Part shown: one piece after another, positions 391 to 62,194 of the stretch
Layout of the letters: each line of letters starts with the position of its first letter
Position numbering within the stretch: position 1 is the stretch's first letter
IMG/VR virus record: IMGVR_UViG_3300012944_000024
Coordinates: 34,408-98,407 of that record
Source of the DNA: a virus
DNA length: 64,000 bases
Direction: 5' to 3' (one strand)
Translations under genes and position numbers: made by a program
The notes under the pieces: generated by a model
What the model was told of the DNA's origin: nothing
Databases searched by the model: none
The model's input: only the letters and a program-made list of their open reading frames with translations

Positions 391-945
391 ATGAGACGTA
401 TCGCCGCCCTCTTCGCCGCCCTCCTTCTGCCCGCCTGCGGGGGGCCGCCCTTCACCACCGCGGATCGGGCCGCCACGCCGCCCAGCGACGAGGCTGGGAA
501 CCCGGGTTCCCAGGTGCCGATCCCCGACCCCGTGGGCGACGCCGCCTCGGCTGGCAACCGGGACGACGCGGGGCTGCCAGACCCCCCCGCCCCCCTCCCC
601 ACCTCCCCCACCCCGCCTGGCAGCCCCGAGGCGGGCTCGCCGCCCGTCGACCCACCCGACGCCCCCCCGCCCGCGCGCGAGGCCACAGCGCCCTCGTGCG
701 GGCCCGGCAACTGCGCGGGCTGCTGCGACAGTACGGGTACGTGCCAGCGGGGAGGGTCCGACACCGCCTGCGGGGCGTCGGGCAACGCGTGCGGAGATTG
801 TGCCCCTTTGACGTGCCTCTCGGGCGCGTGCGTGGGGGCTACGTGCATGCCCGCGCTCTGCCCGGCGTGCAGCAATGGGCTGTCGTGCTGCGCGGCCGGT
901 GGGTGCGGGTGCGTCGGGGGCGCGGGGCTCTGCGTCGCGAACTAG
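391..945 (+). CDS. Cys-rich lipoprotein with Pro-rich linker
   Basis: MRRIAALFAALLLPA-C lipobox, P/D/S-rich linker, C-terminal CGPGNCAGCC...CG..C repeats. Confidence 0.75.
   Translation: MRRIAALFAALLLPACGGPPFTTADRAATPPSDEAGNPGSQVPIPDPVGDAASAGNRDDAGLPDPPAPLPTSPTPPGSPEAGSPPVDPPDAPPPAREATAPSCGPGNCAGCCDSTGTCQRGGSDTACGASGNACGDCAPLTCLSGACVGATCMPALCPACSNGLSCCAAGGCGCVGGAGLCVAN
496..511. repeat. Palindrome A, GGGAACCCGGGTTCCC (copy 1)
   Basis: Exact; extends to a 20-bp palindrome 494-513; inside the lipoprotein linker. Confidence 0.98.
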
Positions 946-2549
946 AGGTCCCAGCCCATCACGGCCACGTTCACGCTCCCCACGCCGCGCGACGACCCCG
1001 TGCTATCGACCTGCAGGCCGAATCCGAACAGGACTCCGGACGGCGGGATGGCAACCTTCACGCGGTAGCCGACCGCGAGCGCGTTGGCCGACACCGTCGG
1101 GTTTGGCAGGGAGTCGACGATCACCTCGGCGCGTGTGAGCACGTGCGTCAAGGTCGACTCGTACACGAGCACCGAGAGCTGCAGGAAGTCGATGAATCCC
1201 GACGGGACCGGTCCCGAGATGACCGTGAGGAGCAGGTGGAGCGCCTTGGCGTTCGCGGGGTAGTCGGTCACCGGCGCGTAGGTCCCGCTGGAGAACGAGC
1301 CCGACGTAGTGAGGGTCTTGGTGAAAAGACCCCCGGCGCCGGGGACGTTGGTCGTCTGCTTGACCCCATCGGTCACCACCGCGGCGACCGCCCCGCTGGT
1401 GGTCAGCCCGACCGCGATGCAGACGGCCTTCTGCGTCGCCCCCCCCAGCCCCGTCCCTGGGGGCAGGGCGAGAGGTGCGTTGGGGGCGCCCAAAAAGCTC
1501 GCAGGCGTCATCGAGAGCGACGGGATGCCGCGCGGGTTGCCCGGCGCGAGCAGGCCCCCTTGCAGCGTGTAGATCGCCCACCGAGGCAACCCAAACGGCT
1601 CGAGCAGATAGACGTACCCGACCCCCGCGCTGATCGCGCCGCTCTGGTTGGCCGCGAGATTGAGGTCGGTGGTGCCGCCGAGCTGGCCGCCCAGGCGGTA
1701 GAGGCACCCGCCCCCCGTCCCCAAAAAAACGAAGTTTGGATCGGTCGCGCTCGTGTCGACGTAGCCAGTGAGCAGCGCGTGGGTCGGCGAGCTCGCCGTG
1801 TCGATCTGGGTCCGATGGATCCGGGTGTGCGGATCGCGAGTGGCGAGGTTGAAGGGCGGGAAGAGCCGGTCGCCCACGAAGGGGCGCACATCCCAGAGGG
1901 TGCAGTTGGACGAGGTGATGGCGGTGAAGCCGGTGGGGGCGGAGATCACCGCGAGCGGCACCCACCCCACCGCCGTGCCGGGAAACCCGCCGCCCGACCC
2001 GCCCGCGCGCACGCGGTACTGCAGACGCCCGGAGATGACCTTGTTGACCGTCGAGGCGAGAAAGAGCCCCGTGACGGGATTGAAGATGTCGCGGTTGTCG
2101 GTCTCGAGGACCGAGAACCCACCCGCCACCCTCGCGCACTCGACCACGTAGATGATCGTCCCGCCCGACGTGTTGGCCGGGACGGCGAGGGCGCCGGCGA
2201 TGTTGATCCCCGGGTCGCGGATCACCTTGTACTGCGACTCGTCGGGGTTGATCGAAACATCAGGATCGTAGAGGCCGATCACCCCGGGATCGACCAGGAG
2301 GTTCAGGCTGCCGATCTGCGGGCGCACCACCAGCCCGTTGAAGACGGCCGCGCTCGGAGGGGAGGTGGCGATCGTCGACTGCAGGTCGAACGAGCTCGCC
2401 TGCGTGTCGTCGGTGCCGCAGTAGGTGTCGGCGAGCGCGCGGAGCAGCTCGTTCAGATCGAGCCCGCGGAATCGCTGCGCGCGGTTCTGGTCGTCCGAGA
2501 TCGCGCGCTCGCTCGCGTTGTAGACCAGTTCCTGCTCGCCATTGGCCAT
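942..2549 (-). CDS. Baseplate-attached/tail fibre protein
   Basis: About 535 aa, G/T/V-rich, directly downstream of the baseplate wedge genes. Confidence 0.6.
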   Translation of the reverse strand: MANGEQELVYNASERAISDDQNRAQRFRGLDLNELLRALADTYCGTDDTQASSFDLQSTIATSPPSAAVFNGLVVRPQIGSLNLLVDPGVIGLYDPDVSINPDESQYKVIRDPGINIAGALAVPANTSGGTIIYVVECARVAGGFSVLETDNRDIFNPVTGLFLASTVNKVISGRLQYRVRAGGSGGGFPGTAVGWVPLAVISAPTGFTAITSSNCTLWDVRPFVGDRLFPPFNLATRDPHTRIHRTQIDTASSPTHALLTGYVDTSATDPNFVFLGTGGGCLYRLGGQLGGTTDLNLAANQSGAISAGVGYVYLLEPFGLPRWAIYTLQGGLLAPGNPRGIPSLSMTPASFLGAPNAPLALPPGTGLGGATQKAVCIAVGLTTSGAVAAVVTDGVKQTTNVPGAGGLFTKTLTTSGSFSSGTYAPVTDYPANAKALHLLLTVISGPVPSGFIDFLQLSVLVYESTLTHVLTRAEVIVDSLPNPTVSANALAVGYRVKVAIPPSGVLFGFGLQVDSTGSSRGVGSVNVAVMGWDL

Positions 2550-2582
2550 GAGCGGCAATGTCCTACGAGTCGGGGTACCGCG

Positions 2583-4469: not shown

Positions 4470-5590
4470 GCCGCCAACCCGACCGTCACGAACGAAGGGG
4501 TCGTCCTGAGCGTCTGGCCGAGCGCGGGGACGAGGTCGCCCGCGGGAGCGACGATTGCCGACTGCTTCACCACCAGGCCTTGCGCGGCGTAGCGCTGTAG
4601 CACCGAGAAGAGCTGGCCCACGTAGAGCGGCCCGTTGACAGGCAGGGAGTTGACGAACCCCACCACCGCCGCCTGGATGATCTGCGAGAGCGCGACGGTG
4701 TCGACGTTGCCCGCGAAGGTGAGCGAGAGGACGACCGAGATGAGCTGCGGGATCGAGGTGAACACGAGCACTGTGATCCCACCCGCGCGGTAGTCGTCAA
4801 GAGAGCTCAGCACTTGGGAGGCGAGCGCGGCCGACGCGACCCCGCTCGAGTCGGCGATGTAGAGGTTCACCACGCGCGCGGGCTGGCCGAGCGTGTTGAT
4901 CGCCTCGACCGCCATCGCCGATGTCACCCCCGGGACCGCCTTGGCGCCGAACTCGATCGCCGAGAGCACCCCGCGGCGCGCGGTCAGCCAGAACCCGCGA
5001 ATGCGGTTTCGGAAGTCGTCATCCTCCTCGACGTCCTCGCCCCCCGCGGTGACGTCGTCGTTATTGACCTGGACGGTCGTGTCGAAGAGCACCTGCGCGT
5101 TCTGAAATCCCCGGATCTGGTTCTTGCCGACCTGGGTCGCCTTGCCCGCCTGGCTCGCGCGTACGTTCGCGAACACGAAGTCGGTCTGCCCGAGGTTGAA
5201 GGTCGCGGTCGTGGTGGTGACGTAGCTGATCCCCCCGATTGTGGTGAGGGTGGTGCCGGCGGGGATGGAGCCGGCCCCGAGCGCTGCGGATAGCCGGAAG
5301 AAGCGCACCGTCCCGAGCGCCGCCGAGGCTCCCTTGCGGGCAATCTGGTAGCGGTCGTAGGCGTAGCGGTCGAGGTCGTCCCCGCTCGCCCCGTCGAGCA
5401 AGAGCGACGAGATTCGGAAGCCGAGCTGCTTGACGATCGCGTAGTGGACGACGCTCTGCGAGCCGACGAAGAGGTTCACGTCGCTCCCGACGACGTCTAC
5501 CTGTCCGGGATCGATCCGCTTCGCCCGCGCGAGGACGTACGCGCGCCCTATGGAATAGAGGTCGACTCGGCTTGGCAAATCGAGCGGCAC
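4466..5590 (-). CDS. Baseplate J/gp47-like protein
   Basis: ASGDDLDRYAYDRY.I.RKGA, AGGEDVEEDDDFRNRI, AKAVPGV motifs typical of baseplate J. Confidence 0.9.
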   Translation of the reverse strand: MPLDLPSRVDLYSIGRAYVLARAKRIDPGQVDVVGSDVNLFVGSQSVVHYAIVKQLGFRISSLLLDGASGDDLDRYAYDRYQIARKGASAALGTVRFFRLSAALGAGSIPAGTTLTTIGGISYVTTTTATFNLGQTDFVFANVRASQAGKATQVGKNQIRGFQNAQVLFDTTVQVNNDDVTAGGEDVEEDDDFRNRIRGFWLTARRGVLSAIEFGAKAVPGVTSAMAVEAINTLGQPARVVNLYIADSSGVASAALASQVLSSLDDYRAGGITVLVFTSIPQLISVVLSLTFAGNVDTVALSQIIQAAVVGFVNSLPVNGPLYVGQLFSVLQRYAAQGLVVKQSAIVAPAGDLVPALGQTLRTTPSFVTVGLAA

Positions 5591-9595: not shown

Positions 9596-10833
9596 CACGG
9601 CCCCTTGGTCGCGTTGACCACGGGGATCACCAGCAGGGATCCGGGCGTGAGCGAGACCTGGTGCCACGGCAGGTGGTTGGCGCGAAGGATGTCGATGTCG
9701 TGGTCGATGCTGCCGTAGTAGAGCTGCGAGACCGACTGCGGGGTGTCGCCCTGCTTGACCACCCGGATCCCCAGGATCATCCCTTGCCGCGTCCCCTGCA
9801 GGGTGTTGGAGCCGATCTCCCCGCCGCCCGGGTGGCGTGAGAACTGGTCGCGCATCTGCTGCTGGGCGATCTGGCCGGCGAGCGCGCAGCTCTGCGCTTC
9901 GTCGTCGACGGCGGCGAAGTAGGTGAAGGATCGCATCAGGTCCCCGACATTCTCGGAGACGCTCGCCTGCTCGAACGGAATGTCGCCGAGGTTATCGGAG
10001 AACTGCAGGGCCTGATCGGTGGCGTCCTTGGCGAAGTCGATCACCGTGTTGGCGATGCTGAAGGGCAGGGTGGCGACGTCGATCGCGATGGCGCCGATCT
10101 GCGAGAGCCCCGTGGTGATGCGCGTGAGGTTCTGCACGAGCGACTGGACGATCGCGAGCGGCGCGTTCGCGAGGGTCTCGAGCTGCCCGAGCGTGAAGAA
10201 GGACGCGCTGCTGAGGATGTTCTTGTTCTGCGAGACGATCTTCGCGTTCGCCGCGGCGATCGTGGCCGCCATCGAGGAGACGAGCGCGGAGCTCGCGCTC
10301 TCCACGTCCGCCTCGCGCGCCGCCACCGCGCGCTGCTGCGTCGCGCCGCGCGAGACCCACGAGAACGTGACCGACCACTCGACGTCGACGGATCTCGAGG
10401 GCTTGAAGTCCCAGTGCGAGACCCGCCCCTCCCGCACCACCGTGCGGGAGATGACCCCGTCGGTCGAGCTCGCGATCGCCCAGGTCACGCGCAGCCTCTG
10501 CCCCTTGCGGGCCAGGTCTTCAAAGATGTCCCAGAGCGAGCCGGGCGAGCTGACGTCGATCTCCCCGCTCCCGTCGTTCCACGAGCACGGCGCGCGGTTG
10601 ATCACCGTCAACCGCCACTCGCCCGTCCATGTGGTCGGGATCTCCTTGGCCACCAGCACCTGCTGGGTCGCCTCGGTCGGGTTGCCCGGGTACCAGGTGG
10701 TCGGAAGGACGTTCTCCCCGCCCCAGTTGGCCCCCCCCATCCTGGGGAGCCCGCCCCCGCGCAGCGAGAGGGTCCGCGTCGGGTTGCGGTAGGCGTCGAG
10801 CTCGACGATCCCGATGGCGGAGGAATAACTCAA
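9595..10833 (-). CDS. Tail tube initiator with C-terminal LysM-like domain
   Basis: VVKQGDTPQSVSQLYYG...ILRANHL...LTPGSLLVIP; downstream of tape measure. Confidence 0.75.
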   Translation of the reverse strand: MSYSSAIGIVELDAYRNPTRTLSLRGGGLPRMGGANWGGENVLPTTWYPGNPTEATQQVLVAKEIPTTWTGEWRLTVINRAPCSWNDGSGEIDVSSPGSLWDIFEDLARKGQRLRVTWAIASSTDGVISRTVVREGRVSHWDFKPSRSVDVEWSVTFSWVSRGATQQRAVAAREADVESASSALVSSMAATIAAANAKIVSQNKNILSSASFFTLGQLETLANAPLAIVQSLVQNLTRITTGLSQIGAIAIDVATLPFSIANTVIDFAKDATDQALQFSDNLGDIPFEQASVSENVGDLMRSFTYFAAVDDEAQSCALAGQIAQQQMRDQFSRHPGGGEIGSNTLQGTRQGMILGIRVVKQGDTPQSVSQLYYGSIDHDIDILRANHLPWHQVSLTPGSLLVIPVVNATKGP

Positions 10834-10864
10834 GGGGGTCCCAGCTCCCGGCGTGAGCCGGCGC

Positions 10865-11194
10865 TCAGACCGCCTTCTTGTTTCGTCCCACCCACTTCGC
10901 CAGAGGGTTGGCCGCGCCCTTCGGCTTCGCCATCGGCTGCGTCGCCGGGGAGGCCGACGCCACCACGCTCGAGGCCGTCGAAGATCCCTGCGTCGAGCTC
11001 GACGAGCCCGGCGACGAGGTCGAGGCGGTCGGGTCGTTGGAGGCGCCGCTCGACGCTGCCGGCGGGGCGGAGGAGGCCGGCTGGGTCGACGCGGGGGGCG
11101 CGGAGGAGCTCGGCGCCGGGGCAGGGGGCTTGGGGGGGCCCTTCTTCTTCGCAGCGCCCGCCGCGACGAACTTCGAGAGTTTCGGAAAGGCCAT
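10865..11194 (-). CDS. Small disordered S/A/P/K-rich protein
   Basis: Fills the gap between TMP and LysM genes; terminal LSKFV/LAKWV motifs. Confidence 0.6.
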   Translation of the reverse strand: MAFPKLSKFVAAGAAKKKGPPKPPAPAPSSSAPPASTQPASSAPPAASSGASNDPTASTSSPGSSSSTQGSSTASSVVASASPATQPMAKPKGAANPLAKWVGRNKKAV

Positions 11195-11250
11195 CGGGAT
11201 CTCCGAGATGAGACCTACCAGGGGGCCGAGAGCCGCCGCAAACTCCGGCC

Positions 11251-11266
11251 GGGAACCCGGGTTCCC
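11251..11266. repeat. Palindrome A (copy 2)
   Basis: Exact; 9 nt after the tape measure stop. Confidence 0.98.
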
Positions 11267-11275
11267 GGCGGGGGA

Positions 11276-13243
11276 TCAGAATCCAAAGGTCTGTGAAAAG
11301 CGACTCGTGATCCGATTGGTCGCGGAGCGCGCGATGTCCTTCCGGAAGATAAGTGCGATCTTGTCCGGGTCGGCGTTCCGGAAGTCCTGGTGGATGTGCA
11401 TCGTGGTCGGCCCGAAGTTGATCGGCGGCAGCTTCGTCTCCGGTCCCTCCGCGCCGCCCGATGCGAGCCCGTGGAGCTTCTTGAGCGCGTCCTCCACGCT
11501 CCCCGTCGCCCCCGCGAGCGCGATGCGCAGGGCGTTGTTGGCGGAGAGGATCCGCCGCGCGCTCGCGTCGGCCTCCTTGGCGTTGACCTCGGTGGCGGTC
11601 TTGAACGCGCTGGTGATCTTCCCCATCCCGAGGCCCACCGCGATCCCCTGGGCGCCCATCACGTTCGCGCTCGCCGCCTCGAACCCGCCCATCGCGTTCG
11701 CGAGCTTGGCGTGGCCCTCGGCCTGCGCGTTGGCCTGGGCGAGCACCTTGCGGTAGGCGTCCTCGGTCATGTCGCCCGCCTCGACCGCCGCGGCGCCAGA
11801 GCGCTCGAGCGACTCGATGTAGTGCTGCATGTCCTGGTCGGTCGCCTCGACCTTCTGCGCGTCCTCGCCGATCTTGCGCACCACCGCGTTGATGTTGGCG
11901 AGCCGGTCGGCCGCCGCGTCGACGCTCTCGGTGAAGGGGTTCATGTGCTCGATGAGCCGCCCGAAGCTCATCCCGCTCTCCTGCTCGAGCTTGCCCATCT
12001 GATCGGACGCGAGCGTCCACGACCCCACCGCCGCGACCAGCGCGCCCGCCCCCAGCGCCGCCCCCGCCCCGCCCGTCCCCCCCAGCCCCCCCGCGCCCCG
12101 CGCCTTGCCCGCCGCCGCCCCCAGGCCCGGCAGCGCCCCCGCCCCCTGGGTCAGCATCCCCAGGGCCGGCTTGCCCACGTACTGCGCCGCCGCGAGCCCG
12201 AGGAGCAGATCGCGGTGCTCGGCGAGGAAGGAGACGGCCCCCTTGATCGCCCCCGCCCCGTCCTCGAGCGCCTTGCTGATCTCGTCCGCGTGGGTCTCGA
12301 GGTACTCGAATGCCTCCTTGATCTCGGCGCCGGCGATCTTCACCCACTCGCCAACCTTGTCCCCCATCGTGTGGGCGAGCCGCTCGATCTCCTCGCGGTG
12401 CTCGGCGAGGTAGACCTTCAGGTGCTCGAGCTGCGGGCCGACCGCGGCGATCATCGGGGCCCCCATCGTCTCGAAGAACGCCTCGCGCGTGCCGCTCAGC
12501 GAGGTGAGCAGCTGGTCGAACGAGAGCGGCGCGTCCTTCATGCGCTTGGCCATCCGGTCGACCGCGGTCTCGGCGAGCTTGAAGACGTCCTCTTGCTTGC
12601 CCCCCTGCATCATCGCGTTGAGCGCCTTGGCGACCTTCTTGGCCCCGCCCTCGACAACGCCCGTCTGCCGCATCAGCTGCACGAGCGCGTTCTTGGGCCT
12701 CACGATCCCCATCTCGAGGTCGCGCCACGCCGCGCTCATCGCCTCGAGCCCGCCGGGCAGGTTCTTCGACGCGACGGCCATCTTGTCGACCATCCCGGAG
12801 ACCTCCTCGCTCGAGCGGGTCGAGCGAGAGGCGATCATCTCGAACGCGTCGAGCATCGATTCCTTCGTGTTGCCTGTAGTGATCCCGAGCTGCTCGAAGT
12901 GCTCGTTCAACTTCTCGGCCTTCTCGGAGAGCTCGTCGAAGCTGCTCTCGCCCTTCTCGACCATGCTGATCGCCCCGGCGAGCTCCTTCTTCTGCTCGGC
13001 CAGGTGGGCGGCGGAGTGGAAGACCTCCTCACCGAACTCCTTGACCGTCTCGACCGCCCCCGAGAGCTGGAACCCGATCGCCACCGCGGCGGCCTGCTTG
13101 GCCATCCCCATCATCTCGTGGCCCACCTCGTGGACCTTCTCTCGCAGGCCCTCGAAGTTCTCCTTGAGCTTGTGCAGCGCCTCGTGCGCCTGATCGTCAA
13201 GAGTCAGCTTGGTGGAGACTTCCGCTTGCTCGTGTTCGCTCAT
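11276..13243 (-). CDS. Tape measure protein
   Basis: 655 aa Ala/Glu-rich helical protein with hydrophobic segments, directly after the tail chaperones. Confidence 0.85.
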   Translation of the reverse strand: MSEHEQAEVSTKLTLDDQAHEALHKLKENFEGLREKVHEVGHEMMGMAKQAAAVAIGFQLSGAVETVKEFGEEVFHSAAHLAEQKKELAGAISMVEKGESSFDELSEKAEKLNEHFEQLGITTGNTKESMLDAFEMIASRSTRSSEEVSGMVDKMAVASKNLPGGLEAMSAAWRDLEMGIVRPKNALVQLMRQTGVVEGGAKKVAKALNAMMQGGKQEDVFKLAETAVDRMAKRMKDAPLSFDQLLTSLSGTREAFFETMGAPMIAAVGPQLEHLKVYLAEHREEIERLAHTMGDKVGEWVKIAGAEIKEAFEYLETHADEISKALEDGAGAIKGAVSFLAEHRDLLLGLAAAQYVGKPALGMLTQGAGALPGLGAAAGKARGAGGLGGTGGAGAALGAGALVAAVGSWTLASDQMGKLEQESGMSFGRLIEHMNPFTESVDAAADRLANINAVVRKIGEDAQKVEATDQDMQHYIESLERSGAAAVEAGDMTEDAYRKVLAQANAQAEGHAKLANAMGGFEAASANVMGAQGIAVGLGMGKITSAFKTATEVNAKEADASARRILSANNALRIALAGATGSVEDALKKLHGLASGGAEGPETKLPPINFGPTTMHIHQDFRNADPDKIALIFRKDIARSATNRITSRFSQTFGF

Positions 13244-13244
13244 C

Positions 13245-13559
13245 TCAGGCGTCCTCGGGGCTACCGCCCTCGTTCTTCAAGATCTCCACCACCACCTCGA
13301 ACGCGTCGCGCATCTCGCCGACGTCGCGATGCTCCCACGAGAACGGGTCGACGCGCGCGTAGCGGGCGAGCACCATCTTCATCCACAACCGGTCGCGAAT
13401 GACCCGGGCCGGGTCCTTGCTGTAGAGGAGCGAGGCGTCAAACCCAACGCTCACGCAGAGGCGCGCGAGGACGTCGTCAACCCAGTCGGGGTCGGGCGGG
13501 AAGGTGGACCGCCGCCCGCTTAGCCGACCGTCCGCGGCGCCACGCAGTGCTCGAAAAAA
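13245..13559 (-). CDS. Tail assembly chaperone, -1 frameshift extension (G-T type)
   Basis: Open -1 frame from slippery T-TTT-TTC (13553-13559) to a stop just before TMP. Confidence 0.7.
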   Translation of the reverse strand, partial: FFRALRGAADGRLSGRRSTFPPDPDWVDDVLARLCVSVGFDASLLYSKDPARVIRDRLWMKMVLARYARVDPFSWEHRDVGEMRDAFEVVVEILKNEGGSPEDA

Positions 13560-14077
13560 TCGGCGTTCTCCGAAGCGTCCATCACGTGCGTCTTGAGGTA
13601 GATCCCCTTGAGCTGCTGGCGGCACTTGCCGCCGATCTCGTTCCAGAAGGCGGCGACGCTCGCGAATCCATCCCCGTCCGCCGGGTGGGTCGGGGCCAGC
13701 GAGATCTTCTTGCCATCGACGCTGCGGATCATCGCCTTGGCCATCTCGTCGATGATCCGGATCCCGTCGCCGCGCGCGAGCTTGCTCGCCCGCTTCTCAT
13801 CGGACTCCGAGAGGTTCCAGAGGATGCAGGTGCGGTCCTCGCCCTTGGGCATGTTCGTCATCGGCGCGCGGAAGCGGACGAACCAGATCGTCCAGCCCGG
13901 AGGAAACGAGAACCCCGCGGGCACCTTCGCCCATGCGGGGGTGGCCTGATCGGTGTCGGTGGGGACGACGTCGTCCTCGTCGTCGAGATCCACCACCGCG
14001 GGGGCCGGGGCCCCGCCCCCCTCGCCCTTCGCCTCGGCGATGAGCTTCTCCATGTCATCGGCTTCGATCTTCGGCAT
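13520..14077 (-). CDS. Tail assembly chaperone (G-like)
   Basis: Position upstream of TMP; slippery heptamer near the 3' end. Confidence 0.75.
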   Translation of the reverse strand: MPKIEADDMEKLIAEAKGEGGGAPAPAVVDLDDEDDVVPTDTDQATPAWAKVPAGFSFPPGWTIWFVRFRAPMTNMPKGEDRTCILWNLSESDEKRASKLARGDGIRIIDEMAKAMIRSVDGKKISLAPTHPADGDGFASVAAFWNEIGGKCRQQLKGIYLKTHVMDASENADFFEHCVAPRTVG

Positions 14078-14102
14078 GCGTCGGTTTCCTCCGCGGGCGA
14101 GC

Positions 14103-14630: not shown

Positions 14631-14883
14631 GGGACCGGATCATGGCATAGGTGGGGGCGAGGCGAGCGAGATGACCGTGCCCCCCCGCGGCTCTCCTCGC
14701 CTCTCTTTTTTCAACCCGCCGGCATAGGAGAGTCGAGCTGGAGCGGTGGGCCCTCCCCCCATCGCGATCTAGCTCCTCTTAGGTGGGCGCCCGGGGCGGC
14801 GTGGACACGGGGCTGGAGAGGGACGACGCAGACCCTTGGGACCCCGAGAACGCGCCACCCCGGAACTCCCGTACGCCCGCCCC

Positions 14884-14899
14884 GGGAACCCGGGTTCCC
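14884..14899. repeat. Palindrome A (copy 3)
   Basis: Exact; 8 nt after the HNH gene stop. Confidence 0.98.
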
Positions 14900-14907
14900 A
14901 GCGCGGT

Positions 14908-15567: not shown

Positions 15568-15598
15568 GACCCGGAGACTAATACAATCTAATAACTAA

Positions 15599-16036: not shown

Positions 16037-16071
16037 TAGACCCTTTTCCTTCTTGTGCTGGCATCCGGTCC

Positions 16072-16359: not shown

Positions 16360-16384
16360 CGCCACGGTCACTTGGGGTTCCCTT

Positions 16385-45047: not shown

Positions 45048-45063
45048 GGGAACCCGGGTTCTC
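45048..45063. repeat. Palindrome A (copy 8, one mismatch: GGGAACCCGGGTTCTC)
   Basis: 15/16 match in a long intergenic region. Confidence 0.9.
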
Positions 45064-49484: not shown

Positions 49485-49500
49485 GGGAACCCGGGTTCCC
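49485..49500. repeat. Palindrome A (copy 10)
   Basis: Exact; 8 nt after the stop of 49509-49823. Confidence 0.98.
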
Positions 49501-49508: not shown

Positions 49509-49823
49509 TCAGTCCGCGTCGATCCCCGCATCGGGCTGGATCTGCCGGTGCGCCCCGAGCCCGCGGATGTTGCAGCACGCACCTGCGGGACACCCAACCG
49601 AATAGAGCGAACCGCCGCACGTCTCGCCCTCGTAGCAGCACATCCCGCTCGGCCGGCCCTGCATGTCGAGGCACACGACCCCGATGTTGCCGCAGGGGTT
49701 GTCGGGGGTGGGGGCGATGGCGCGCGGGTCGACCCGATCCCACCCCGCGCCCCCGTGGGCGCACGCGCCGATCGTGAGCCAAGCGAGCATGGAGGCGGCG
49801 AAGCAAAGCAACAGGGGTCTCAT
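49509..49823 (-). CDS. Cys-rich lipoprotein
   Basis: ...LTIGA-C lipobox-like motif, 8 further Cys. Confidence 0.65.
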   Translation of the reverse strand: MRPLLLCFAASMLAWLTIGACAHGGAGWDRVDPRAIAPTPDNPCGNIGVVCLDMQGRPSGMCCYEGETCGGSLYSVGCPAGACCNIRGLGAHRQIQPDAGIDAD

Positions 49824-52230: not shown

Positions 52231-52779
52231 TCACCCCGCTTTGGGATCGCGAAGCTGCACCACTCGTGGGTCCTCGGCCCCGTCGATCGCAGCGCCTAGG
52301 CGATCTGGCCCACGCCCCTCCAGGCGCGCCGCCTTCAGCTCCTCGGCCCACGCGGCCGCGACGATTGTGAACGCGGTCAGGGCGAATCGATCGAAGGTCT
52401 CGAACCCCGCAGCGCCTTGGTCGATCCCCGCGACGAGCTCCTTGTGCTCCTCCTGCACGAGCACGACGAGCGCCAGGATGGGCAGCTCGGTCAACTCGAC
52501 GACCAGCGAGGCGGCGAGGTTCTGCGCCGTCTTCCAGCTGCGCTGCTCGACCGCCCGCCTCATCGCGTCGCGTAGCTCGTGGCACCGCCCGAGCACGCGC
52601 TCAAGGTCGCGGATCCTCTGCTCACGCTGCAGCGCGGCGAGCGCGTCGAAGAGATTGCGCGCGTCCTGGGCGTGGTTGAGCGGGTCGTTCGTCTCGAAGT
52701 CCGGGTCGGAAGAATGCCCCAGGAACTTCTCGCACAGCGTCGGGAGCATCTCGCCGACCAGGTCTCTCGCCTTCGTCAT
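52231..52779 (-). CDS. Hypothetical helical protein
   Basis: ATG 52779 with upstream GGAG. Confidence 0.6.
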   Translation of the reverse strand: MTKARDLVGEMLPTLCEKFLGHSSDPDFETNDPLNHAQDARNLFDALAALQREQRIRDLERVLGRCHELRDAMRRAVEQRSWKTAQNLAASLVVELTELPILALVVLVQEEHKELVAGIDQGAAGFETFDRFALTAFTIVAAAWAEELKAARLEGRGPDRLGAAIDGAEDPRVVQLRDPKAG

Positions 52780-52812: not shown

Positions 52813-52828
52813 GGGAACCCGGGTTCCC
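52813..52828. repeat. Palindrome A (copy 11)
   Basis: Exact; intergenic, downstream of the terminase. Confidence 0.98.
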
Positions 52829-52980: not shown

Positions 52981-55659
52981 TCATCGCACCAGCATCGAGG
53001 CCGTCGCGCGCCTCGGCCCCTTCCCACCGGGTAGGGGGGTTTTGCGGATCGCCCCGAACCGGCGCGCCGTCTCGAGAGCAAAAAAACTACTCATCAATAA
53101 ATCTCCTGTGTGCGCGCTCGGCACGTAGTGCAGGCACTGGTCGATCCACTTCTTGAGCGGCCCCTCCGCGGGTCGCCCCTCGTTGGGGATCGCCCACGCC
53201 CCGTTCGCCATCTCCCCGAAGATGCTCGGCACGCCGTTCTGGATGCTGTTCTTGCTCGCGTCGGTGCGGTGCTCCTTGAGGATCAAGCTCTTGTTGCTCG
53301 TGACCATCAGGCGCCTCACCCCCTCCTGGGCGCCGTTGTTCTCGAACCCAAACGGCAGGTGGTCGAAGCGCTCGTCGATCCACTCGAGCTTCTTCGCGAG
53401 CTCGTCGGTCCCCCACTTGCCGCTCTCGAGCCACATGGGCACGCGGATCTGCATCTTGCCGTTGTCGTCGGGGAAGACGCCCAGTACGAAGATGGCCGTC
53501 TCGTCGGCCGCCGCGCTCTGGGAGAAGGCGAGATCCACCCCCCCGTAGATCCAGTTCTTGAGCCCCCCGCGCGGCGCGCCGTTGTACTTGAGAAACTCCT
53601 CCGCGCTCGAGGCGATGCGCTTGAAACCCATCTTGCGGCCGAGCGCGAGCGCCTTGTCGACGTACTCCTGCTTGCAGAGGGCGGTGGAGTCGTCGCGGCA
53701 GACGTTGTTGTAGTTTCTCTCGAACTCGACCGGATGCATCTCGCCGCGTCGCTCCTCGAGCAGCTCCCTCGGCCACCGCTCCGGCCAGAGGGTGCGCTCG
53801 CCCTCGGGCAGGTGGTCGTGGGCGACGAGCCGGTAGGTCGCCAAGGGGTTGGAGGGGTCGAGATCGTCGTCGGGGCGGATGAGATCCGAGTCGAAGCGCG
53901 GGCAGTTGCGAAGGAGGATGGTGCCATTGGAGCGCATGATCATCCCGGGCCAGCCCGGCCCCCCCTCGGCCTGGCTCATCATCAGGCGGTGGGTGGTGTC
54001 GTCCTGGTGGAGCGCCACGCACGTCACCACCACCTTGCCGCGCCGGCTGTCCATGCGCGTGAAGAGGGTGGAGGAGAGCCATCGATAGAGCGCCTCGCGC
54101 GCTTCGGGGGTGTGGGTGTTCTCTTCGTTGGACAGGTCGTCGACGTGGCAGAAGCCCCACCGGCTCCCGCGGATCTGCTTGGAATCTTGCCCGCGCGCCA
54201 CCAGGCTCGGGTCCTTGGAGCCGGGGGGGCGGTCGACGATGAGCTCCGTCGTCGTCCACGAGTCGCCCATGCGCGAGGACCGCCGCAGGGTGGGGAAGAC
54301 GAACTGCAGCTCCGGCGAGCTCTCGATGTACTGCCGGATCATCGAGAAGGGTTTCTTCGCCTGGCCCTCCGAGGCGCTCACCACGGCCGCCTTGAGCAGG
54401 GGGTCGTGGCCGATCTTCCAGAGCGTGTAGCCGGCGAGCGAGAACGTGTTGTGCGTGACGGTGAAGTCGCCGAGCAGGTAGCGCCCGTCCCCGCCGATCG
54501 TGACCCCGAAAAACTCATCGACCCCGATCGGCTCGACTTTGAAGTGCGTCCAGAGTGCGCGGCGCACCTTCGTCGCCGGCGTGACGCGCTTGCGCGCCAG
54601 CCGGATGGGGATGTCGGCGAACGCGTCGCCGGCGATCGTGAGGCGCCGGTAGGTACCGTACTCTGGATGCTCGAACGACCCCTCGCAGACGCGCAGGCCG
54701 AGCGACCTGGCGATGAAGGCGATGTCTCGCGCCCAGTCGGCGTTCTTTTGGGTGATCCATATGCACCCATCCTTCGCGCACCCGTCCGCGTCGATGAAGC
54801 CCGCGAGAAACTCGGCACGATCCGCCCACGGGGCCGTCTTGGCCCACGTCATCGTCAGCGAGTCGCCCTCGACGGCCTCGCGGATCTTCTCCATCAGCGG
54901 GTTGGGCCTGCGCCCCTGCCCCTTGCCCGCTCCCTTCCCGCCGGGCCGCGAGAGCCCGAACGACTGCTCGTCGAGCGGTACGACGTGCAGCCCGTGCGCG
55001 TGGGCGATCTCCATGCACATCGACCGAACCTCGGGGTCGATGCTCGTCAGGCGCACCCCGTGCCGGACCGAGTGGAGTCCGTCGCCGAACCAGACGCCGA
55101 GGAAGTAGGGGTCGACCGGCAGGGGTCGTTCGCCGTGGAATCGCCGCACCGACGCGCGCACCAGACTCGAGGTCGAGCGCTTCCACTTCGACCAGCCGAG
55201 CCAGTCTCGGATCGTGACGTCGTCGATCCTCCCCGTCTCAGAGTCGACGATCGTCAGGAGGTGGTCCTCGTTGCAAACGAACGGGTTACCCCCTCGCTTC
55301 GGCGTGACCCGGTAGAGCATCCCACGCCCCCCGCCGGTCGTGTTGAGCACCCGCGTGGGCGCCCGATAGCCCATGATCCAGTCGCCCTTGCGGACGTCCT
55401 CGACCGCACGCGTCGTCCCGTCCGCCATCAGGATCGGCGTCCCCCGCCCGTGGCACTTCGTGTGCTCGACGGGGATCATGAGCACGCTGTTGCGGTGCGC
55501 CTCGACGAACTCGAAGATCAGCCGCTGCAGCGGGATGACCCGGATGGGCGCGGCCGTCCCTTCCTCGCGCAAGACGAACTCGAAGAACTTCGCGACGTCC
55601 TCGCGCGCCTCCTCCGCCTCGAGCAAGAGCTCGGCGATCACCTCCTCGTCGTCGCTCAT
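52981..55659 (-). CDS. terL: Terminase large subunit (intein-containing)
   Basis: P..H.K/T Walker A, IRGSRW..HVDD Walker B, GGVDLA, GFENNGAQ and GDLLMS nuclease motifs. Confidence 0.92.
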   Translation of the reverse strand: MSDDEEVIAELLLEAEEAREDVAKFFEFVLREEGTAAPIRVIPLQRLIFEFVEAHRNSVLMIPVEHTKCHGRGTPILMADGTTRAVEDVRKGDWIMGYRAPTRVLNTTGGGRGMLYRVTPKRGGNPFVCNEDHLLTIVDSETGRIDDVTIRDWLGWSKWKRSTSSLVRASVRRFHGERPLPVDPYFLGVWFGDGLHSVRHGVRLTSIDPEVRSMCMEIAHAHGLHVVPLDEQSFGLSRPGGKGAGKGQGRRPNPLMEKIREAVEGDSLTMTWAKTAPWADRAEFLAGFIDADGCAKDGCIWITQKNADWARDIAFIARSLGLRVCEGSFEHPEYGTYRRLTIAGDAFADIPIRLARKRVTPATKVRRALWTHFKVEPIGVDEFFGVTIGGDGRYLLGDFTVTHNTFSLAGYTLWKIGHDPLLKAAVVSASEGQAKKPFSMIRQYIESSPELQFVFPTLRRSSRMGDSWTTTELIVDRPPGSKDPSLVARGQDSKQIRGSRWGFCHVDDLSNEENTHTPEAREALYRWLSSTLFTRMDSRRGKVVVTCVALHQDDTTHRLMMSQAEGGPGWPGMIMRSNGTILLRNCPRFDSDLIRPDDDLDPSNPLATYRLVAHDHLPEGERTLWPERWPRELLEERRGEMHPVEFERNYNNVCRDDSTALCKQEYVDKALALGRKMGFKRIASSAEEFLKYNGAPRGGLKNWIYGGVDLAFSQSAAADETAIFVLGVFPDDNGKMQIRVPMWLESGKWGTDELAKKLEWIDERFDHLPFGFENNGAQEGVRRLMVTSNKSLILKEHRTDASKNSIQNGVPSIFGEMANGAWAIPNEGRPAEGPLKKWIDQCLHYVPSAHTGDLLMSSFFALETARRFGAIRKTPLPGGKGPRRATASMLVR
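54448..55455 (-). mobile_element. Intein with LAGLIDADG homing endonuclease (336 aa)
   Basis: Starts CHGRGTPILMADG, ends FTVTHN before +1 Thr; YFLGVWFGDG and FLAGFIDADG motifs. Confidence 0.95.
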
Positions 55660-56518: not shown

Positions 56519-56534
56519 GGGAACCCGGGTTCCC
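56519..56534. repeat. Palindrome A (copy 12)
   Basis: Exact; 19 nt after the stop of 56554-57198. Confidence 0.98.
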
Positions 56535-56553: not shown

Positions 56554-57198
56554 TCACTCACCGGCCATCTCCACCACCTGCGATGCCGCGGCGAGCCGCT
56601 TGCGCTCCCTCGCGCGCTCGAGCAGCCCCTGCGTCCGCTCGGGCGTCAGCGTCGAGAGGACCGCCATCAGCGATTCCTTGAGCGCGTGCTCGACGATCAC
56701 TTTTTGCGGGGCCCGTGTGCCCTCGATGTCTGCGAGCAGCTCCTCACACCGCACGTACTGGGGAGGGGGGAGGAGCTCCTCCACCACTTCCTTCTCGACC
56801 ATCGTGCCCGTGTTTGGATCGCGTACGCGACGCTTGACCGTCTTGTAGCGCGGGGTCTTGAACTTCTCGATCGCGTCGTGCAGACGCGCGATCGTCACCG
56901 CCCGCGCGTAGGGCTTGCGCGCGTCCGCCTCCGTCTTGAGCGACTCGTGCACCTTGGCGATGAGGCTGCGCGTCGCGATCGCCCCGATCCCCAGCTCCCC
57001 GCGCGCGATGCGCACGATGAGCGCGTCGGTGTAGCCGCGCGTCAATAGACGGAAGACCTCGGCGAGCCGGTTCTCGTCCTCGGTCGGGGTGAGGTCGATC
57101 TGCGCGATCACGGCGCGCTCCTCGGGCGTCACGGGGCGGGTGATCCTGGCGGGGACGCCTACTTTCGGAGGGAACGAGCCGCTGCGTCGGCGAGCCAT
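56554..57198 (-). CDS. Possible terminase small subunit
   Basis: HTH-like N-terminal half, helical core, near terL; inferred from position. Confidence 0.4.
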   Translation of the reverse strand: MARRRSGSFPPKVGVPARITRPVTPEERAVIAQIDLTPTEDENRLAEVFRLLTRGYTDALIVRIARGELGIGAIATRSLIAKVHESLKTEADARKPYARAVTIARLHDAIEKFKTPRYKTVKRRVRDPNTGTMVEKEVVEELLPPPQYVRCEELLADIEGTRAPQKVIVEHALKESLMAVLSTLTPERTQGLLERARERKRLAAASQVVEMAGE

Positions 57199-60828: not shown

Positions 60829-61068
60829 TCATGGCTTCACGTGGGCCCAGTTGGGCTCCCAGACCGCCTCGGCGACGAAGCGCGGCGGCAGGGTCGGGTA
60901 GCGCGGATTCTCAAACACGCGGATCGAGATCTCCCGACCTGGCTGGGGGACCGAGGGGCCCGCGTCAGAGCCGCGCTGCTCGTAGAGGTCGAGGGCGAGC
61001 TGCTTGAGCGCGTGCCAGGGGGTCTCGCCGCCCGCCAGGAGCTGCCGCGTGTCTCGCCTGCCCATCAC
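60829..61068 (-). CDS. Hypothetical protein
   Basis: Coupled small ORF. Confidence 0.5.
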   Translation of the reverse strand: MMGRRDTRQLLAGGETPWHALKQLALDLYEQRGSDAGPSVPQPGREISIRVFENPRYPTLPPRFVAEAVWEPNWAHVKP

Positions 61069-61469
61069 CCCATCCCCTCTCTCGCCACCATGCCGCGCAG
61101 CACCTCGCCCGCCACCGCCGCCTGCAGCGATGCGGTACGGGGCACGATGGTGACTTGGCTCTCACCCGAGGCGTGCGCGCGCAGCACCACCACCGCATCG
61201 GGCTCGAGGCTCGTCCACTGCCGCCACGCCCGCTCGCCGTGCTTGACGAGTTCGGTGAGCTTGGGGTGCACGCTCTCATCCTCGTCGAGCATGTCGAGCG
61301 ACACAAACCCCGCCATCCACCCCTTCGTCTTGAGCGCGCTGTCGGCGAAGACAAGCTTCGGCCGGCGCCCGTGCTTGACGATGAAGGCCAAGCACATCAT
61401 CTCCATGCGATCGTGAAACGTCTTGACGCTCTCGAGCAGCATGGCCTCCACGGTCGGGTCGAGGCTCAT
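61065..61469 (-). CDS. Hypothetical protein
   Basis: Coupled ORF. Confidence 0.6.
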   Translation of the reverse strand: MSLDPTVEAMLLESVKTFHDRMEMMCLAFIVKHGRRPKLVFADSALKTKGWMAGFVSLDMLDEDESVHPKLTELVKHGERAWRQWTSLEPDAVVVLRAHASGESQVTIVPRTASLQAAVAGEVLRGMVAREGMG

Positions 61470-62194
61470 TGGGAACCCGGGTTCCCAGCCGCGTGGATCG
61501 CGAGCCGCACCGCCTCGGTTTCATCGAGCTGCCTCGCGCAGAGCCGCCGCACCTGCTCGGCCAGTGAGCCCTCGAACCCCCGGCACACGTCGACGAGCTC
61601 GCGGAAGACGCCCTGGTAGTGGCGGAGCATCTTGAGCGCGGCGAGCTCACGAGCACGGCGCCTCGCGCTCTTGCCCTCCGCCTTGTTTAGCTTGTCCTGC
61701 ACCTCATCGAGCAGGGCGTCGCACGACTTGACGATCTCCTCCTGCTTCTTGCCCGCTTGCGCGAGCGCGGTCTGGTAGCGCTGCTCGAGCGCCTTCGTAC
61801 CCGCCTGGTAGTGCTCGATGAGCTGCGAGCGCACGAGTTCCACCTTCCCCATCTCCTCGAGCTTCGCGGCGAACTCGACCTCCTGCTCGGAGGTGAAGGT
61901 CGGGTGCTCGAACTGCGCGAGCTGCGCGCGAAACGCTTCAAGCTGCGCGGAGGCCACCTCGAACGGCACCACCGGGAAGGACACGCATGCGCGATCGAGC
62001 GCCGAGGCGGCGCCGAAGAGCTGCGGGACCCGCTTGAGCGCGAGCAGCATGGTCGACGTCTTGGCCGCATGCGTCTTGGCCTGCCGCTCGAGCACCACGA
62101 TGCGCCCCTTGAGCGCCGTGTTCTCGTTCTTCGTGCGACGGTAGTCATCGGCGGCGCGCTCGTCGAACTCTCGCGTCTCATCGCGGGGCATCAC
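61466..62194 (-). CDS. Coiled-coil hypothetical protein
   Basis: E/K/Q-rich helices; ends in palindrome A (AGNPGSQ*). Confidence 0.65.
   Translation of the reverse strand: MMPRDETREFDERAADDYRRTKNENTALKGRIVVLERQAKTHAAKTSTMLLALKRVPQLFGAASALDRACVSFPVVPFEVASAQLEAFRAQLAQFEHPTFTSEQEVEFAAKLEEMGKVELVRSQLIEHYQAGTKALEQRYQTALAQAGKKQEEIVKSCDALLDEVQDKLNKAEGKSARRRARELAALKMLRHYQGVFRELVDVCRGFEGSLAEQVRRLCARQLDETEAVRLAIHAAGNPGSQ
61471..61486. repeat. Palindrome A (copy 13)
   Basis: Exact; in the last codons of 61466-62194, immediately before the next ATG. Confidence 0.98.

Follow-up and report, generated by a model that had tools for sequence, protein, structure and literature searches.

A dispersed 16-bp palindrome in an uncultured 98-kb phage, with a candidate ParB/KorB-type reader in its clade

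The stretch of DNA analysed here (the window, 64,000 nucleotides) corresponds to bases 34408–98407 of a virus genome of 98,407 bp, in which the genes are all transcribed in one direction and are separated by short gaps. Within the window we identified 12 exact copies of the 16-bp perfect palindrome GGGAACCCGGGTTCCC and one copy with a single mismatch. In 100 dinucleotide-preserving shuffles, matches with up to two mismatches averaged 0.04 and never exceeded one. A degenerate copy with three mismatches was also located, and the whole genome was found to contain 20 exact copies, or about one per 5 kb, most of them in the short gaps between genes. The arms extend to CTGGGAAC...GTTCCCAG in seven copies and to TGGGAAC...GTTCCCA in 12. 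Based on our own codon-bias gene calls, the copies are placed as follows (window coordinates; the copies are palindromic and are given without strand, whereas the strand of neighbouring genes is indicated).

496–511, exact copy between called genes
11251–11266, exact copy, 9 nt after the stop of the minus-strand gene 11276–13243
14884–14899, exact copy, 8 nt after the stop of the minus-strand gene starting at 14908
21859–21874, exact copy, 10 nt after the stop of the minus-strand major capsid gene 21885–23294
24527–24542, exact copy, 11 nt after the stop of the minus-strand gene 24554–25348
26238–26253, exact copy, 5 nt after the stop of the minus-strand gene 26259–26528, followed on the mRNA strand by GGTAGACT, a -10-like box
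31552–31567, degenerate copy with three mismatches, all in one arm, probably decayed
37278–37293, exact copy, 90 nt after the stop of the minus-strand gene 37384–38103, inside or just before the called start of gene 36541–37344
45048–45063, intergenic copy with one mismatch (GAGAAC arm on the mRNA strand); the same variant occurs five times in the relative G001
46826–46841, exact copy, 19 nt after the stop of the minus-strand gene 46861–47085
49485–49500, exact copy, 8 nt after the stop of the minus-strand gene 49509–49790
52813–52828, exact intergenic copy, 33 nt before the start of the minus-strand gene 52231–52779
56519–56534, exact copy, 19 nt after the stop of the minus-strand gene 56554–57132 and 15 nt before the next start; a site follows the orthologue of this gene in six related genomes, each with its own word
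61471–61486, exact copy on a stop/start junction, in the last codons of gene 61466–62191 and 1 nt from the start of gene 61065–61469

The observation made in the earlier note, of a palindrome repeated just downstream of stop codons, was confirmed: six copies lie 5–11 nt and two lie 19 nt after a minus-strand stop, and one sits on a stop/start junction. The genes concerned include the major capsid gene and, in the reading of the earlier note, a putative tape measure gene. We also examined two alternatives that would have counted against the array, namely an assembly artefact and an abundant host repeat. The motif is not an assembly artefact, because an independent metagenome fragment, 99.35% identical to genome bases 31628–33937, carries both sites of that stretch. 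A scan of all genomes returned single copies per stretch in diverse phyla, and the motif appeared as an abundant repeat in only two of the bacterial genomes checked. Both are Chloroflexota MAGs with about 90–106 degenerate, REP-like copies each, roughly one per 50 kb in comparison with one per 5 kb in the phage.

The motif is one case of a clade-wide system, and about 30 related phage contigs each repeat a palindrome of their own. Each of 10 related phages retrieved whole (35–100 kb), and most of 31 polB loci, repeats its own perfect palindrome of 16–24 bp, with 13–26 copies per complete genome and about 20 different words overall. In the earlier note, an invariant sequence was named as what would support protein-DNA recognition, whereas the word in fact differs from phage to phage. 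Every one of these words is palindromic through its four central bases, and the centre is CG in all but one. Canonical parS and Noc sites are likewise even-length palindromes with a CG centre. Of 194 sites in 12 genomes, 127 are intergenic against 24 expected (fivefold enrichment), and 81 lie from -8 to +25 nt of a stop codon against eight expected (10-fold). About a third lie inside genes, in variable linkers that are read in different frames. Some positions persist while the word changes, for example in the PolB C-terminal linker. Across 12 genomes we counted 170 exact sites, 19 with one mismatch (14 of them at the two outermost positions) and six with two mismatches, none of which is compensatory. 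The closest relatives have similar words: GGGAACCC, CGGAACCC and TGGAACTC form one group, and CGAAAGTC and CGAAAAGC form another, as would be given by in-lineage co-evolution with a phage-encoded reader.

The same 16-mer was also identified in a known ParB context. It occurs in one to four clustered copies in and around a DnaA_N-protein/ParA/ParB operon in a metagenome contig and in at least nine Chloroflexota genomes whose ParB proteins are 49–97% identical; this word is therefore of the kind that ParB-type domains read.

None of the three candidate factors named in the earlier note is clade-wide. The sigma-r4 HTH protein (window position 47113) occurs in only three of 12 related genomes and the RHH-like protein (57477) only in this genome. 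The ParB-like nuclease-domain protein (51753) was missed in two complete palindrome-bearing genomes and is present in the one relative that has no palindromes (G011). The best candidate lies outside the window, at genome bases 20263–21366 on the minus strand, directly upstream of polB. This conserved protein (fam34) has an N-terminal helical domain, a Zn-ribbon, a predicted ParB/KorB-type helix-turn-helix DNA-binding domain and a C-terminal beta domain, with no recognisable ParB CTPase domain. It is present in all nine complete or near-complete palindrome-bearing genomes and sits immediately upstream of polB in 31 IMG/VR loci, of which about 25 show a palindrome repeated at least twice within roughly 22 kb. 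Five clade members that lack it next to polB, and more than 40 distant PolB loci, show no repeated palindrome. A site lies just upstream of fam34 in about 8–10 of 23 loci and between fam34 and polB in five of 23.

Residues 135–270 of fam34 (pLDDT 80–88) match Spo0J/ParB (PDB 1vz0; Z 9.4, 107 aligned, rmsd 3.5), the ParB DBD-parS complex (6s6h; Z 8.6), the KorB DBD-operator complex (1r71; Z 7.2) and KorB (8qa8; Z 6.3), whereas SopB, P1 ParB and VirB score Z 4.6–4.7. Z values of 7–9 for a helical domain are, however, within the range that can be generic, and Rubisco factor Raf1 chains appear among the top hits. The top Foldseek hit is Noc (7ng0; probability 0.95, E 0.25). A predicted symmetric homodimer of residues 135–367 scores ipSAE 0.68 against a best control of 0.00, with partner pLDDT of at least 73 and agreement between runs in at least 90% of contacts. 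That mark was reached by 20 of 30 proteins solved as pairs of one chain and by one of 23 solved as single chains, although these counts hold only roughly because our own alignment was used.

Based on this, we suggest with moderate confidence that the palindrome is a double-stranded DNA site, of the operator or parS-like kind, for a homodimeric protein encoded by the phage, with fam34 as the most likely reader. In this view, each phage lineage has its own word, which drifts together on both arms at all sites. The sites, their symmetry and placement, their clade-wide co-occurrence with the candidate gene, and the predicted fold and dimer are results of the analysis; that fam34 binds these sites, and what such binding does, are inferred. 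The interpretation in the earlier note was partly supported. Its view that the array is selected at the nucleic-acid level holds, and its analogy with ParB, sopC and KorB was a good lead. It had left open whether the palindrome is a protein-DNA site or an RNA hairpin, and the evidence leans to the former: a homodimer on duplex DNA explains self-complementary central bases, whereas an RNA hairpin would leave them unpaired.

Several results do not favour fam34 as the reader. Its recognition-helix residues differ widely among phages that share one word; for GGAAACCC the four helices read TPTNAYQL, SHTLAYNL, SRTYAERM and LPNQAFDV. Whole-protein similarity of fam34 does not track word similarity better than that of nine other families. 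In a column-by-position mutual-information test fam34 has the highest value (0.93, permutation p about 0.007), but fam32 (another family), RecA-like and f21525 also reach p<0.05, and the test does not single it out. Profile comparison of fam34 with the Chloroflexota ParB was not significant. As fam34 has no ParB CTPase domain and a single BLAST query found no ParA, a clamp or partition mechanism is not supported. A second clade-wide DNA-binding candidate is represented by small HTH proteins at genome bases 24972–25193 and 25209–25688.

The strongest alternative, which remains possible but tentative, is that the palindromes act as hairpins in the mRNA or in transiently single-stranded DNA. They would be REP-like intercistronic elements that end, pause or protect transcripts at gene boundaries, with the uniform sequence arising from a sequence-specific RNA-binding or processing factor or from copy-and-spread. 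The 10-fold excess of sites just after stop codons is consistent with this, as are stems of 6–10 bp that fold at -14 to -21 kcal/mol and the roughly 100 REP-like long hairpins built on the same core in each of two Chloroflexota genomes. In the relative G005, several intergenic sites sit inside much longer perfect hairpins of up to 38 bp whose outer stems covary, as an RNA or DNA structural role predicts; seven of 17 intergenic sites extend 2–9 bp beyond the conserved flank with different, complementary sequences, and two are followed by T-tracts. Against this reading, the central four bases would form the loop, yet they are self-complementary in all of the about 20 word variants, and no compensatory double variants occur in the core. 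The palindromes are not ordinary terminators: in the phage studied here there is no extension beyond 20 bp and no T-tract, whereas a canonical hairpin-plus-T-tract terminator exists elsewhere, at 23528–23499 on the minus strand. Predicted RNA hairpins are only modestly more stable than shuffles (z from -0.5 to -3), and sites persist inside long ORFs such as polB, where a terminator would truncate the message. In phage variants with one mismatch, the commonest change puts an A-C mismatch in the mRNA-sense stem.

It is less likely that the sites mimic a host site and are read by a host protein such as the host's own ParB, to titrate it or to borrow host DNA segregation or condensation, in which case the word would reflect the host rather than the phage lineage. 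The shared 16-mer in the Chloroflexota ParA-ParB operon would fit, as would the finding that across the clade word identity does not follow phage phylogeny (Mantel p 0.30) and that GGAAACCC recurs in four distant phages. However, no phage-like capsid gene was found in five motif-bearing Chloroflexota genomes, and a second phage word, GGAAACCCGGGTTTCC, showed no parS-like cluster in 400 sampled Chloroflexota genomes. The bacterial site is conserved between ParB proteins only 49% identical, whereas phage words differ between much closer phages. The graded words of the closest relatives and the co-occurrence with a phage-encoded protein of predicted ParB fold also argue against this reading.

We consider it doubtful that the palindromes are tiny selfish or recombination-related elements, inserted or homogenised by a phage enzyme or cut by a sequence-specific nuclease that starts recombination-dependent replication. 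Copies within a genome are exactly identical whereas genomes are only 35–50% identical in protein, a concerted-evolution signature; site positions turn over between relatives; and SbcC/SbcD-like and RecA-like genes, which this phage also encodes, are clade-wide. However, flanks are unrelated, no target-site duplications, shared flanking sequence or transposase were seen, and among the genomes analysed no pair was close enough to show an empty site. Several positions are conserved while the word changes, which fits in-place co-evolution better than insertion. A HIP1-like relation, in which the word would be a by-product or target of a phage CCCGGG-specific DNA methyltransferase, putatively encoded at genome bases 19337–20149 and suggested by the CCCGGG centre of this phage's word, is very unlikely and already largely refuted as the sole cause, because 54 of the 75 CCCGGG hexamers lie outside the motif, the hexamer is at its Markov expectation (75 observed, 72.8 expected), relatives have other centres in the same kind of array (such as CTCGAG, AGCGCT, GGCGCC, ATCGAT and AACGTT), homologues of that gene were found in only five of the nine complete or near-complete palindrome-bearing genomes and also in G011, and a 6-bp specificity does not explain 16–24 conserved bases.

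The closest published analogues are KorB with its OB operators on IncP plasmid RK2 and the unexplained 17-bp dyad repeats of Cluster O mycobacteriophages. In the former, one short palindromic word is dispersed over a mobile genome and read by a dimeric protein with a ParB-family HTH domain that controls transcription. KorB has a CTPase N-domain and works as a sliding clamp with KorA, and the quoted OB core is a 13-bp palindrome with one central base (PMC11790492), whereas the phage words are 16–24 bp with an even centre, private to each lineage, on a genome of about 100 kb with one transcription direction. KorB also works with IncC/ParA. The Cluster O repeats (TGTTCGGNNNCCGAACA; Cresawn et al, 2015, PMC4351075) comprise more than 30 invariant-arm dyads spread over a phage genome, many intergenic and about a third in genes, and are absent from the host genome. 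Their arms are separated by a variable 3-bp spacer, whereas the palindromes described here are perfect through the centre, and the five Cluster O phages are close relatives that share one word, whereas here the word diversifies across a deep clade. A capsid protein search of phage records returned no close relative of this clade (best 33% identity, to a Streptomyces phage) and no mycobacteriophage.

Chromosomal or plasmid parS centromeres, including the Chloroflexota operon above, share the 16-bp perfect palindrome with a CG centre, and in that operon the very same 16-mer, but cluster at the par locus (one to four per genome in this case) rather than being dispersed. The linear plasmid-prophage N15 has inverted-repeat centromere sites IR1–4 read by the ParB-family protein SopB (PMC7205306, citing Ravin and Lane, 1999). 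These are scattered over the N15 genome. N15 has only four sites and a complete SopAB partition system and lives as a plasmid prophage, whereas the 20-site phage showed no sign of a plasmid or lysogenic lifestyle in an analysis that did not specifically target integrase or partition genes. Stoperators of Cluster A mycobacteriophages are likewise many copies of one short word, largely at gene boundaries, bound by a phage protein that blocks transcription (PMC4351075). They are asymmetric, oriented with transcription and belong to an immunity repressor of temperate phages, whereas the sites here are fully symmetric. REP/BIME-type repeats are similarly placed just after stop codons and are uniform within a genome but different between genomes. 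The REP-like copies of the two Chloroflexota genomes are degenerate, with only about a dozen of about 91 exact in one of them, and classical REPs are imperfect palindromes spread by RAYT transposases; the phage copies are exact and symmetric through the centre.

If the sites are read by a phage-encoded homodimer, we infer that the bound dimers would punctuate or regulate transcription at gene boundaries, as repressors or roadblocks and, in some relatives, as promoter-proximal operators, with genome organisation as a second possibility.

Within the window we identified 12 exact copies of GGGAACCCGGGTTCCC, at the coordinates stated in the earlier note, and one copy with a single mismatch at 45048, whereas dinucleotide-preserving shuffles gave 0.04 matches at up to 2 mismatches. 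The copy with three mismatches at 31552 was also present. The complete IMG/VR virus record (98,407 bp, 68% GC, CheckV 100%), of which the window represents bases 34408-98407, contains 20 exact copies, spread over 98 kb at a mean spacing of about 4.7 kb. Our codon-bias gene calls identified about 125 genes, all but one or two of which are on the minus strand. Relative to these genes, the positions claimed in the earlier note hold: six copies lie 5-11 nt after a stop codon, two copies lie 19 nt after a stop, one copy sits on a stop/start junction, and the rest lie inside genes or in longer gaps. One of the six follows the major capsid gene, which we identified by tblastn to annotated capsid genes. 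A 2.3-kb fragment from a different metagenome assembly is 99.35% identical to the genome and retains both sites of that stretch, so the motif is not an assembly artefact. The observation on which the earlier note was based is therefore confirmed. The features of this genome referred to below, besides the palindromes, are as follows.

Genome 4842-5456: a protein with a ParB_N domain.
Genome 16392-19169 (locus L022), minus strand, outside the window: PolB.
Genome 20263-21366, minus strand, outside the window: fam34, a 367-aa protein encoded directly upstream of polB.
Genome 24972-25193 and 25209-25688 (locus L023:4972-5688), minus strand, outside the window: small HTH proteins.
Window 23499-23528, minus strand: a canonical intrinsic terminator, with a 13-bp GC-rich stem followed by TCGTTTTTCT, between gene 23586-24452 and the major capsid gene.
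Window 43710-44321, 26534-27175 and 21422-21769, minus strand: proteins that share an N-terminal segment of about 60 aa.
Window 52981-55659, minus strand: an 892-aa protein that carries an intein.
Window 56554-57132: a gene whose orthologue is followed by a palindrome in six genomes.

An exact scan of IMG/VR identified only one other contig with many copies of the motif, namely G001 (88.8 kb), with 7 exact and 9 one-mismatch copies. This contig is a distant relative, which shares about 40 syntenic proteins at 25-57% identity and has almost no nucleotide similarity to our phage. The commonest one-mismatch variant (GAGAAC in the arm upstream on the mRNA strand), found at window 45048 and at G001 sites 967, 10040, 12470, 67742 and 73417, has the same orientation relative to transcription in 6 of 6 cases, which hints at some functional asymmetry of an otherwise symmetric site. 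A search with the capsid protein brought in 15 relatives, of which ten were analysed in full. All but one of these repeat their own perfect palindrome, and the seven that are at least 83% complete carry 13-26 exact copies. The words are TGGAACTCGAGTTCCA (24 copies), TTCGAAAAGCGCTTTTCGAA (13 copies), TTGGAAACCCGGGTTTCCAA (18 copies), ACCGCACGGCGCCGTGCGGT (25 copies), GGAAACCCGGGTTTCC (16 copies), ACGCCGGATCGATCCGGCGT (15-17 copies) and GTCGGTGATCGATCACCGAC (15-17 copies), with two more words in partial genomes; CGGAACCCGGGTTCCG is also among the words of relatives. The exception is a 77%-complete relative, G011, which has none. No pair of close genomes suitable for comparing filled with empty sites exists among these relatives, as the only pair at 99.8% identity is the same phage.

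A second search, with PolB, widened this picture. In 31 loci the gene encoding fam34 sits directly upstream of polB, and about 25 of these show a 16-mer palindrome repeated at least twice within the roughly 22 kb examined, which gives about 20 different words. Clade members without fam34 at this position, and more than 40 distant low-GC PolB loci, show no such repeat. Every word is symmetric through its centre and the central dinucleotide is CG in all but one.

Across 12 genomes there are 194 sites with at most 1 mismatch. Of these, 127 are intergenic against 24 expected, and 81 lie from -8 to +25 nt of a stop codon against 8 expected. The distance to the next start codon peaks at 13-25 nt. 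Because the gaps are short, a site that leaves room for a ribosome-binding site must abut the preceding stop, and this placement therefore does not by itself separate DNA from RNA models. Some positions are kept while the word changes. A site follows the orthologue of window gene 56554-57132 in six genomes, and a site lies in the C-terminal part of PolB in six of nine genomes, with five different words. The PolB alignment places this site in a variable linker after a conserved KTRPxK motif. PolB exists in the clade in two forms, a short form ending after KTRPxK and a long form with an extra C-terminal domain of about 100 aa; in the former the palindrome follows the stop, whereas in the latter it is read through as linker. 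The palindrome marks the junction, which looks like a gene fusion or fission point. Other positions turn over freely between relatives.

Four observations favour a duplex-DNA site read by a symmetric dimer over an RNA hairpin. First, the central four bases would form the loop of any RNA hairpin, yet they are self-complementary in all ~20 words. Second, sites are either perfect or nearly gone, with 170 exact sites, 19 with one mismatch (14 of these at the two outermost positions) and 6 with two mismatches, none of which is compensatory. Third, in this phage nothing beyond the 20-mer CTGGGAACCCGGGTTCCCAG is complementary and none of the window's sites is followed by a T-tract. A terminator scan of window positions 10000-29999 listed none of the four palindromes in that range but did identify the canonical hairpin-plus-T-tract terminator at 23528-23499 on the minus strand, upstream of the capsid gene, showing that the phage uses ordinary terminators as well. 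Fourth, predicted RNA hairpins (-14 to -21 kcal/mol) are only 0.5-3 sd better than shuffles of the same GC-rich sequence.

In contrast, in relative G005 seven intergenic sites sit in much longer perfect hairpins (up to 38 bp), whose outer stems differ in sequence but stay complementary, and two of these have T-tracts. Two palindrome sites of this genome (loci L057-L061, oriented positions 24977 and 50877) also share about 60 nt of identical flank (AAGTCCAC...GTGGACTTTTTCGTATGAGAATCCCTCACGAAAAA), representing a duplicated terminator-like module. At least in this relative a structural role is likely added. The hairpin reading is retained as the main alternative, although we consider it unlikely.

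With regard to the kind of protein site, the metagenome scan with the 20-mer identified an unrelated 45%-GC contig, L209, which holds four copies of the same word in 3 kb. These copies lie in and just after three consecutive genes (L209:2669-6877) encoding a DnaA_N-domain protein, ParA and a 550-aa ParB with ParB_N and HTH_ParB domains. The same operon with the same word recurs in at least nine Chloroflexota genomes whose ParB proteins are 49-97% identical, at 1-3 copies per genome; loci with this operon include L105, L131, L132, L166, L193 and L200. This is the signature of a parS centromere, and the 16-mer is thus a word of the kind that ParB-type domains read. The apparent parS of this operon is GGGAACCCGGGTTCCC rather than the canonical TGTTNCACGTGAAACA, and it may be a lineage-specific centromere. 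The match could still be coincidence among many natural parS variants, and we count it as support for the type of site, not as proof. A search for a second phage word, GGAAACCCGGGTTTCC, in 400 Chloroflexota genomes identified no parS-like clusters.

A host repeat is not supported as the explanation of the motif, as the scan of all genomes gave mostly single chance copies. Two other Chloroflexota MAGs (L118:539-1862, L145:3577-3744 [Chloroflexaceae MAG] and L130) carry about 90-106 degenerate copies each as REP-like long hairpins (for example GGGGGGATGGGGAACCCGGGTTCCCCCATCCCCC) in tandem clusters of 60-69-bp period. This is a different use of a similar core, at about a tenth of the phage density. 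A search with the capsid protein found nothing in 5 motif-bearing Chloroflexota genomes, and among isolated phages the best capsid match was 33% identity, to a Streptomyces phage.

To identify candidate readers of the palindrome, we carried out iterative profile searches over 17 phage genomes and contigs, comprising the query, the 11 relatives analysed whole and 5 short contigs. The three candidates within the window proposed in the earlier note, a sigma-r4 protein, an RHH-like protein and a ParB-nuclease protein, are not clade-wide and are not supported. The ParB_N protein at genome 4842-5456 was likewise rejected, as it is missing from the complete genome of relative G002, even in a six-frame search, and is present in the palindrome-free G011. 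The clade-wide non-structural proteins are the replication and recombination set (PolB, primase, a DnaB-like helicase, a RecA-like protein and SbcC/SbcD-like proteins), two unknown proteins, a small HTH family and fam34. A PHROGs search gave no hits for 10 clade-wide unknown proteins. A shared N-terminal segment of about 60 aa (consensus around ...L.AGK.V.D......L...G..L.P) heads many otherwise unrelated proteins in all genomes, including fibre-like proteins up to 646 aa, and may be a common attachment or adaptor module. In the 892-aa intein-bearing protein, Pfam identified a Hint domain plus LAGLIDADG homing endonuclease domains; orthologues in the relatives are shorter, for example 564 aa in G001.

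Our best candidate is fam34, for which Pfam, PHROGs and a PDB sequence profile identified only a Zn-ribbon. An AlphaFold2 model based on eight orthologues has pLDDT 64 overall and 80-88 over residues 140-265, and its N-terminus is predicted to form a small helical domain plus the Zn-ribbon. A Foldseek-independent structural search with residues 135-270 placed ParB-family DNA-binding domains at the top, namely Spo0J 1vz0 (Z 9.4), the ParB-parS complex 6s6h (Z 8.6), the KorB-operator complex 1r71 (Z 7.2) and KorB 8qa8 (Z 6.3), followed by SopB, P1 ParB and VirB at Z 4.6-4.7, with Rubisco factor Raf1 chains interspersed. The two best Foldseek matches are Noc, at probabilities 0.95 and 0.75 with weak E-values. 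At the sequence level profile matches were not significant, including an hhalign comparison with the Chloroflexota ParB. Two copies of residues 135-367 are predicted to form a symmetric dimer, with ipSAE 0.68 against a best control of 0.00, partner pLDDT at least 73 and contacts agreeing in at least 90% between runs. This mark was reached by 20 of 30 solved homodimers and by 1 of 23 solved monomers, although these counts hold only roughly because our own alignment was used. Palindrome sites also often flank the fam34 gene.

Our analysis did not show that fam34 co-varies with the word. Recognition-helix residues differ among phages with the same word, and a whole-protein residual similarity test gave no informative signal. 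In a mutual-information test with permutations fam34 has the top value, but three unrelated families also pass p<0.05. The tree is star-like, at about 40% PolB identity, and only the few close groups show graded words, namely GGGAACCC, CGGAACCC and TGGAACTC in one and CGAAAGTC and CGAAAAGC in another. This pattern fits slow co-evolution with a phage-encoded reader better than words set by the host. The small HTH family represents a second candidate reader. It is present in all nine complete or near-complete palindrome-bearing genomes, and its 159-aa paralogue has two HTH repeats in one chain. In relative G007 a palindrome plus a -10-like box lies 16 nt upstream of the orthologue, whereas in relatives G003 and G008 the orthologue carries a palindrome at its 3' end.

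We also examined the context of the sites relative to downstream genes. Where the next start codon is 10-45 nt away, 24 of 76 sites are followed by a -10-like box and a start without Shine-Dalgarno sequence, against 48 of 830 loosely defined controls. This effect is strongest in relatives G007, G008 and G010, but is seen at only 1 of 6 such sites in this phage. In this phage only a few sites show such a box, GGCATAG or GGTAGACT, after the sites at genome 506 and 6007 and at window 26238.

Taken together, the interpretation offered in the earlier note is partly supported. The analysis establishes that the array is real and clade-wide, and the sites are most likely protein-DNA sites of the ParB/KorB type; that fam34 or any other phage protein binds them, and what such binding would do, are inferences. 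As such an inference, we favour transcription control at gene boundaries, with the palindrome acting as an operator or a roadblock, and genome organisation as the alternative. A partition or clamp mechanism is not supported. No CTPase domain was seen in fam34, which has no ParB_N match in Pfam, and BLASTP and phmmer searches with the Chloroflexota ParA, a single query rather than a family-level search, gave no hit better than E 0.5 among all proteins called in the 17 phage genomes and contigs. The sites are dispersed rather than clustered at or near a par locus as in ParABS systems, although they share with these a perfect 16-bp palindrome with a CG centre. Restriction avoidance or a methyltransferase as the cause was rejected, as CCCGGG is at its expected frequency and occurs mostly outside the motif.

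The nearest published phenomenon is the unexplained set of more than 30 17-bp dyad repeats of Cluster O mycobacteriophages, for which the authors predicted a dimeric binder and noted a ParB-like protein in the genome (PMC4351075). Both arrays have invariant inverted arms, are dispersed and have about one third of their sites inside genes. However, the Cluster O repeats have 7-bp arms separated by a variable 3-bp spacer and the word TGTTCGG/CCGAACA, whereas here there is no spacer, the centre is CG and the words are different. The nearest understood mechanism is KorB with its OB operators on the IncP plasmid RK2 (PMC11790492), which likewise involves many dispersed identical palindromic operators on one replicon. 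N15 has four SopB centromere sites, IR1-4 (PMC7205306). Cluster A stoperators are asymmetric and oriented with transcription, whereas all words of this clade are perfect palindromes. A full-text literature search for the exact 16-mer found no paper.

We tentatively hypothesise that a deep clade of ~100-kb uncultured phages uses a genome-wide "private word" system, in which each lineage writes its own perfect 16-24-bp parS-like palindrome about every 5 kb, at gene and domain boundaries, and reads it with a CTPase-less ParB/KorB-fold homodimer encoded next to polB, such that word and reader drift together. If so, this would be a phage-borne, clamp-independent offshoot of ParB-type site recognition, used for genome-wide transcription control or DNA organisation.

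If this reading holds, a whole clade of large environmental phages carries a simple, experimentally tractable system of one protein and one private 16-bp word, written about 20 times per genome. It offers a possible explanation for the long-unexplained dyad repeats of Cluster O mycobacteriophages, and the words are also easy genomic markers for recognising members and sub-lineages of this clade in metagenomes. The system would provide a natural series of about 20 orthogonal protein-site pairs for studying how ParB/KorB-type domains change specificity. It would also be a new example of selection on DNA words overriding protein sequence, as the words are written into linkers of PolB and other genes.
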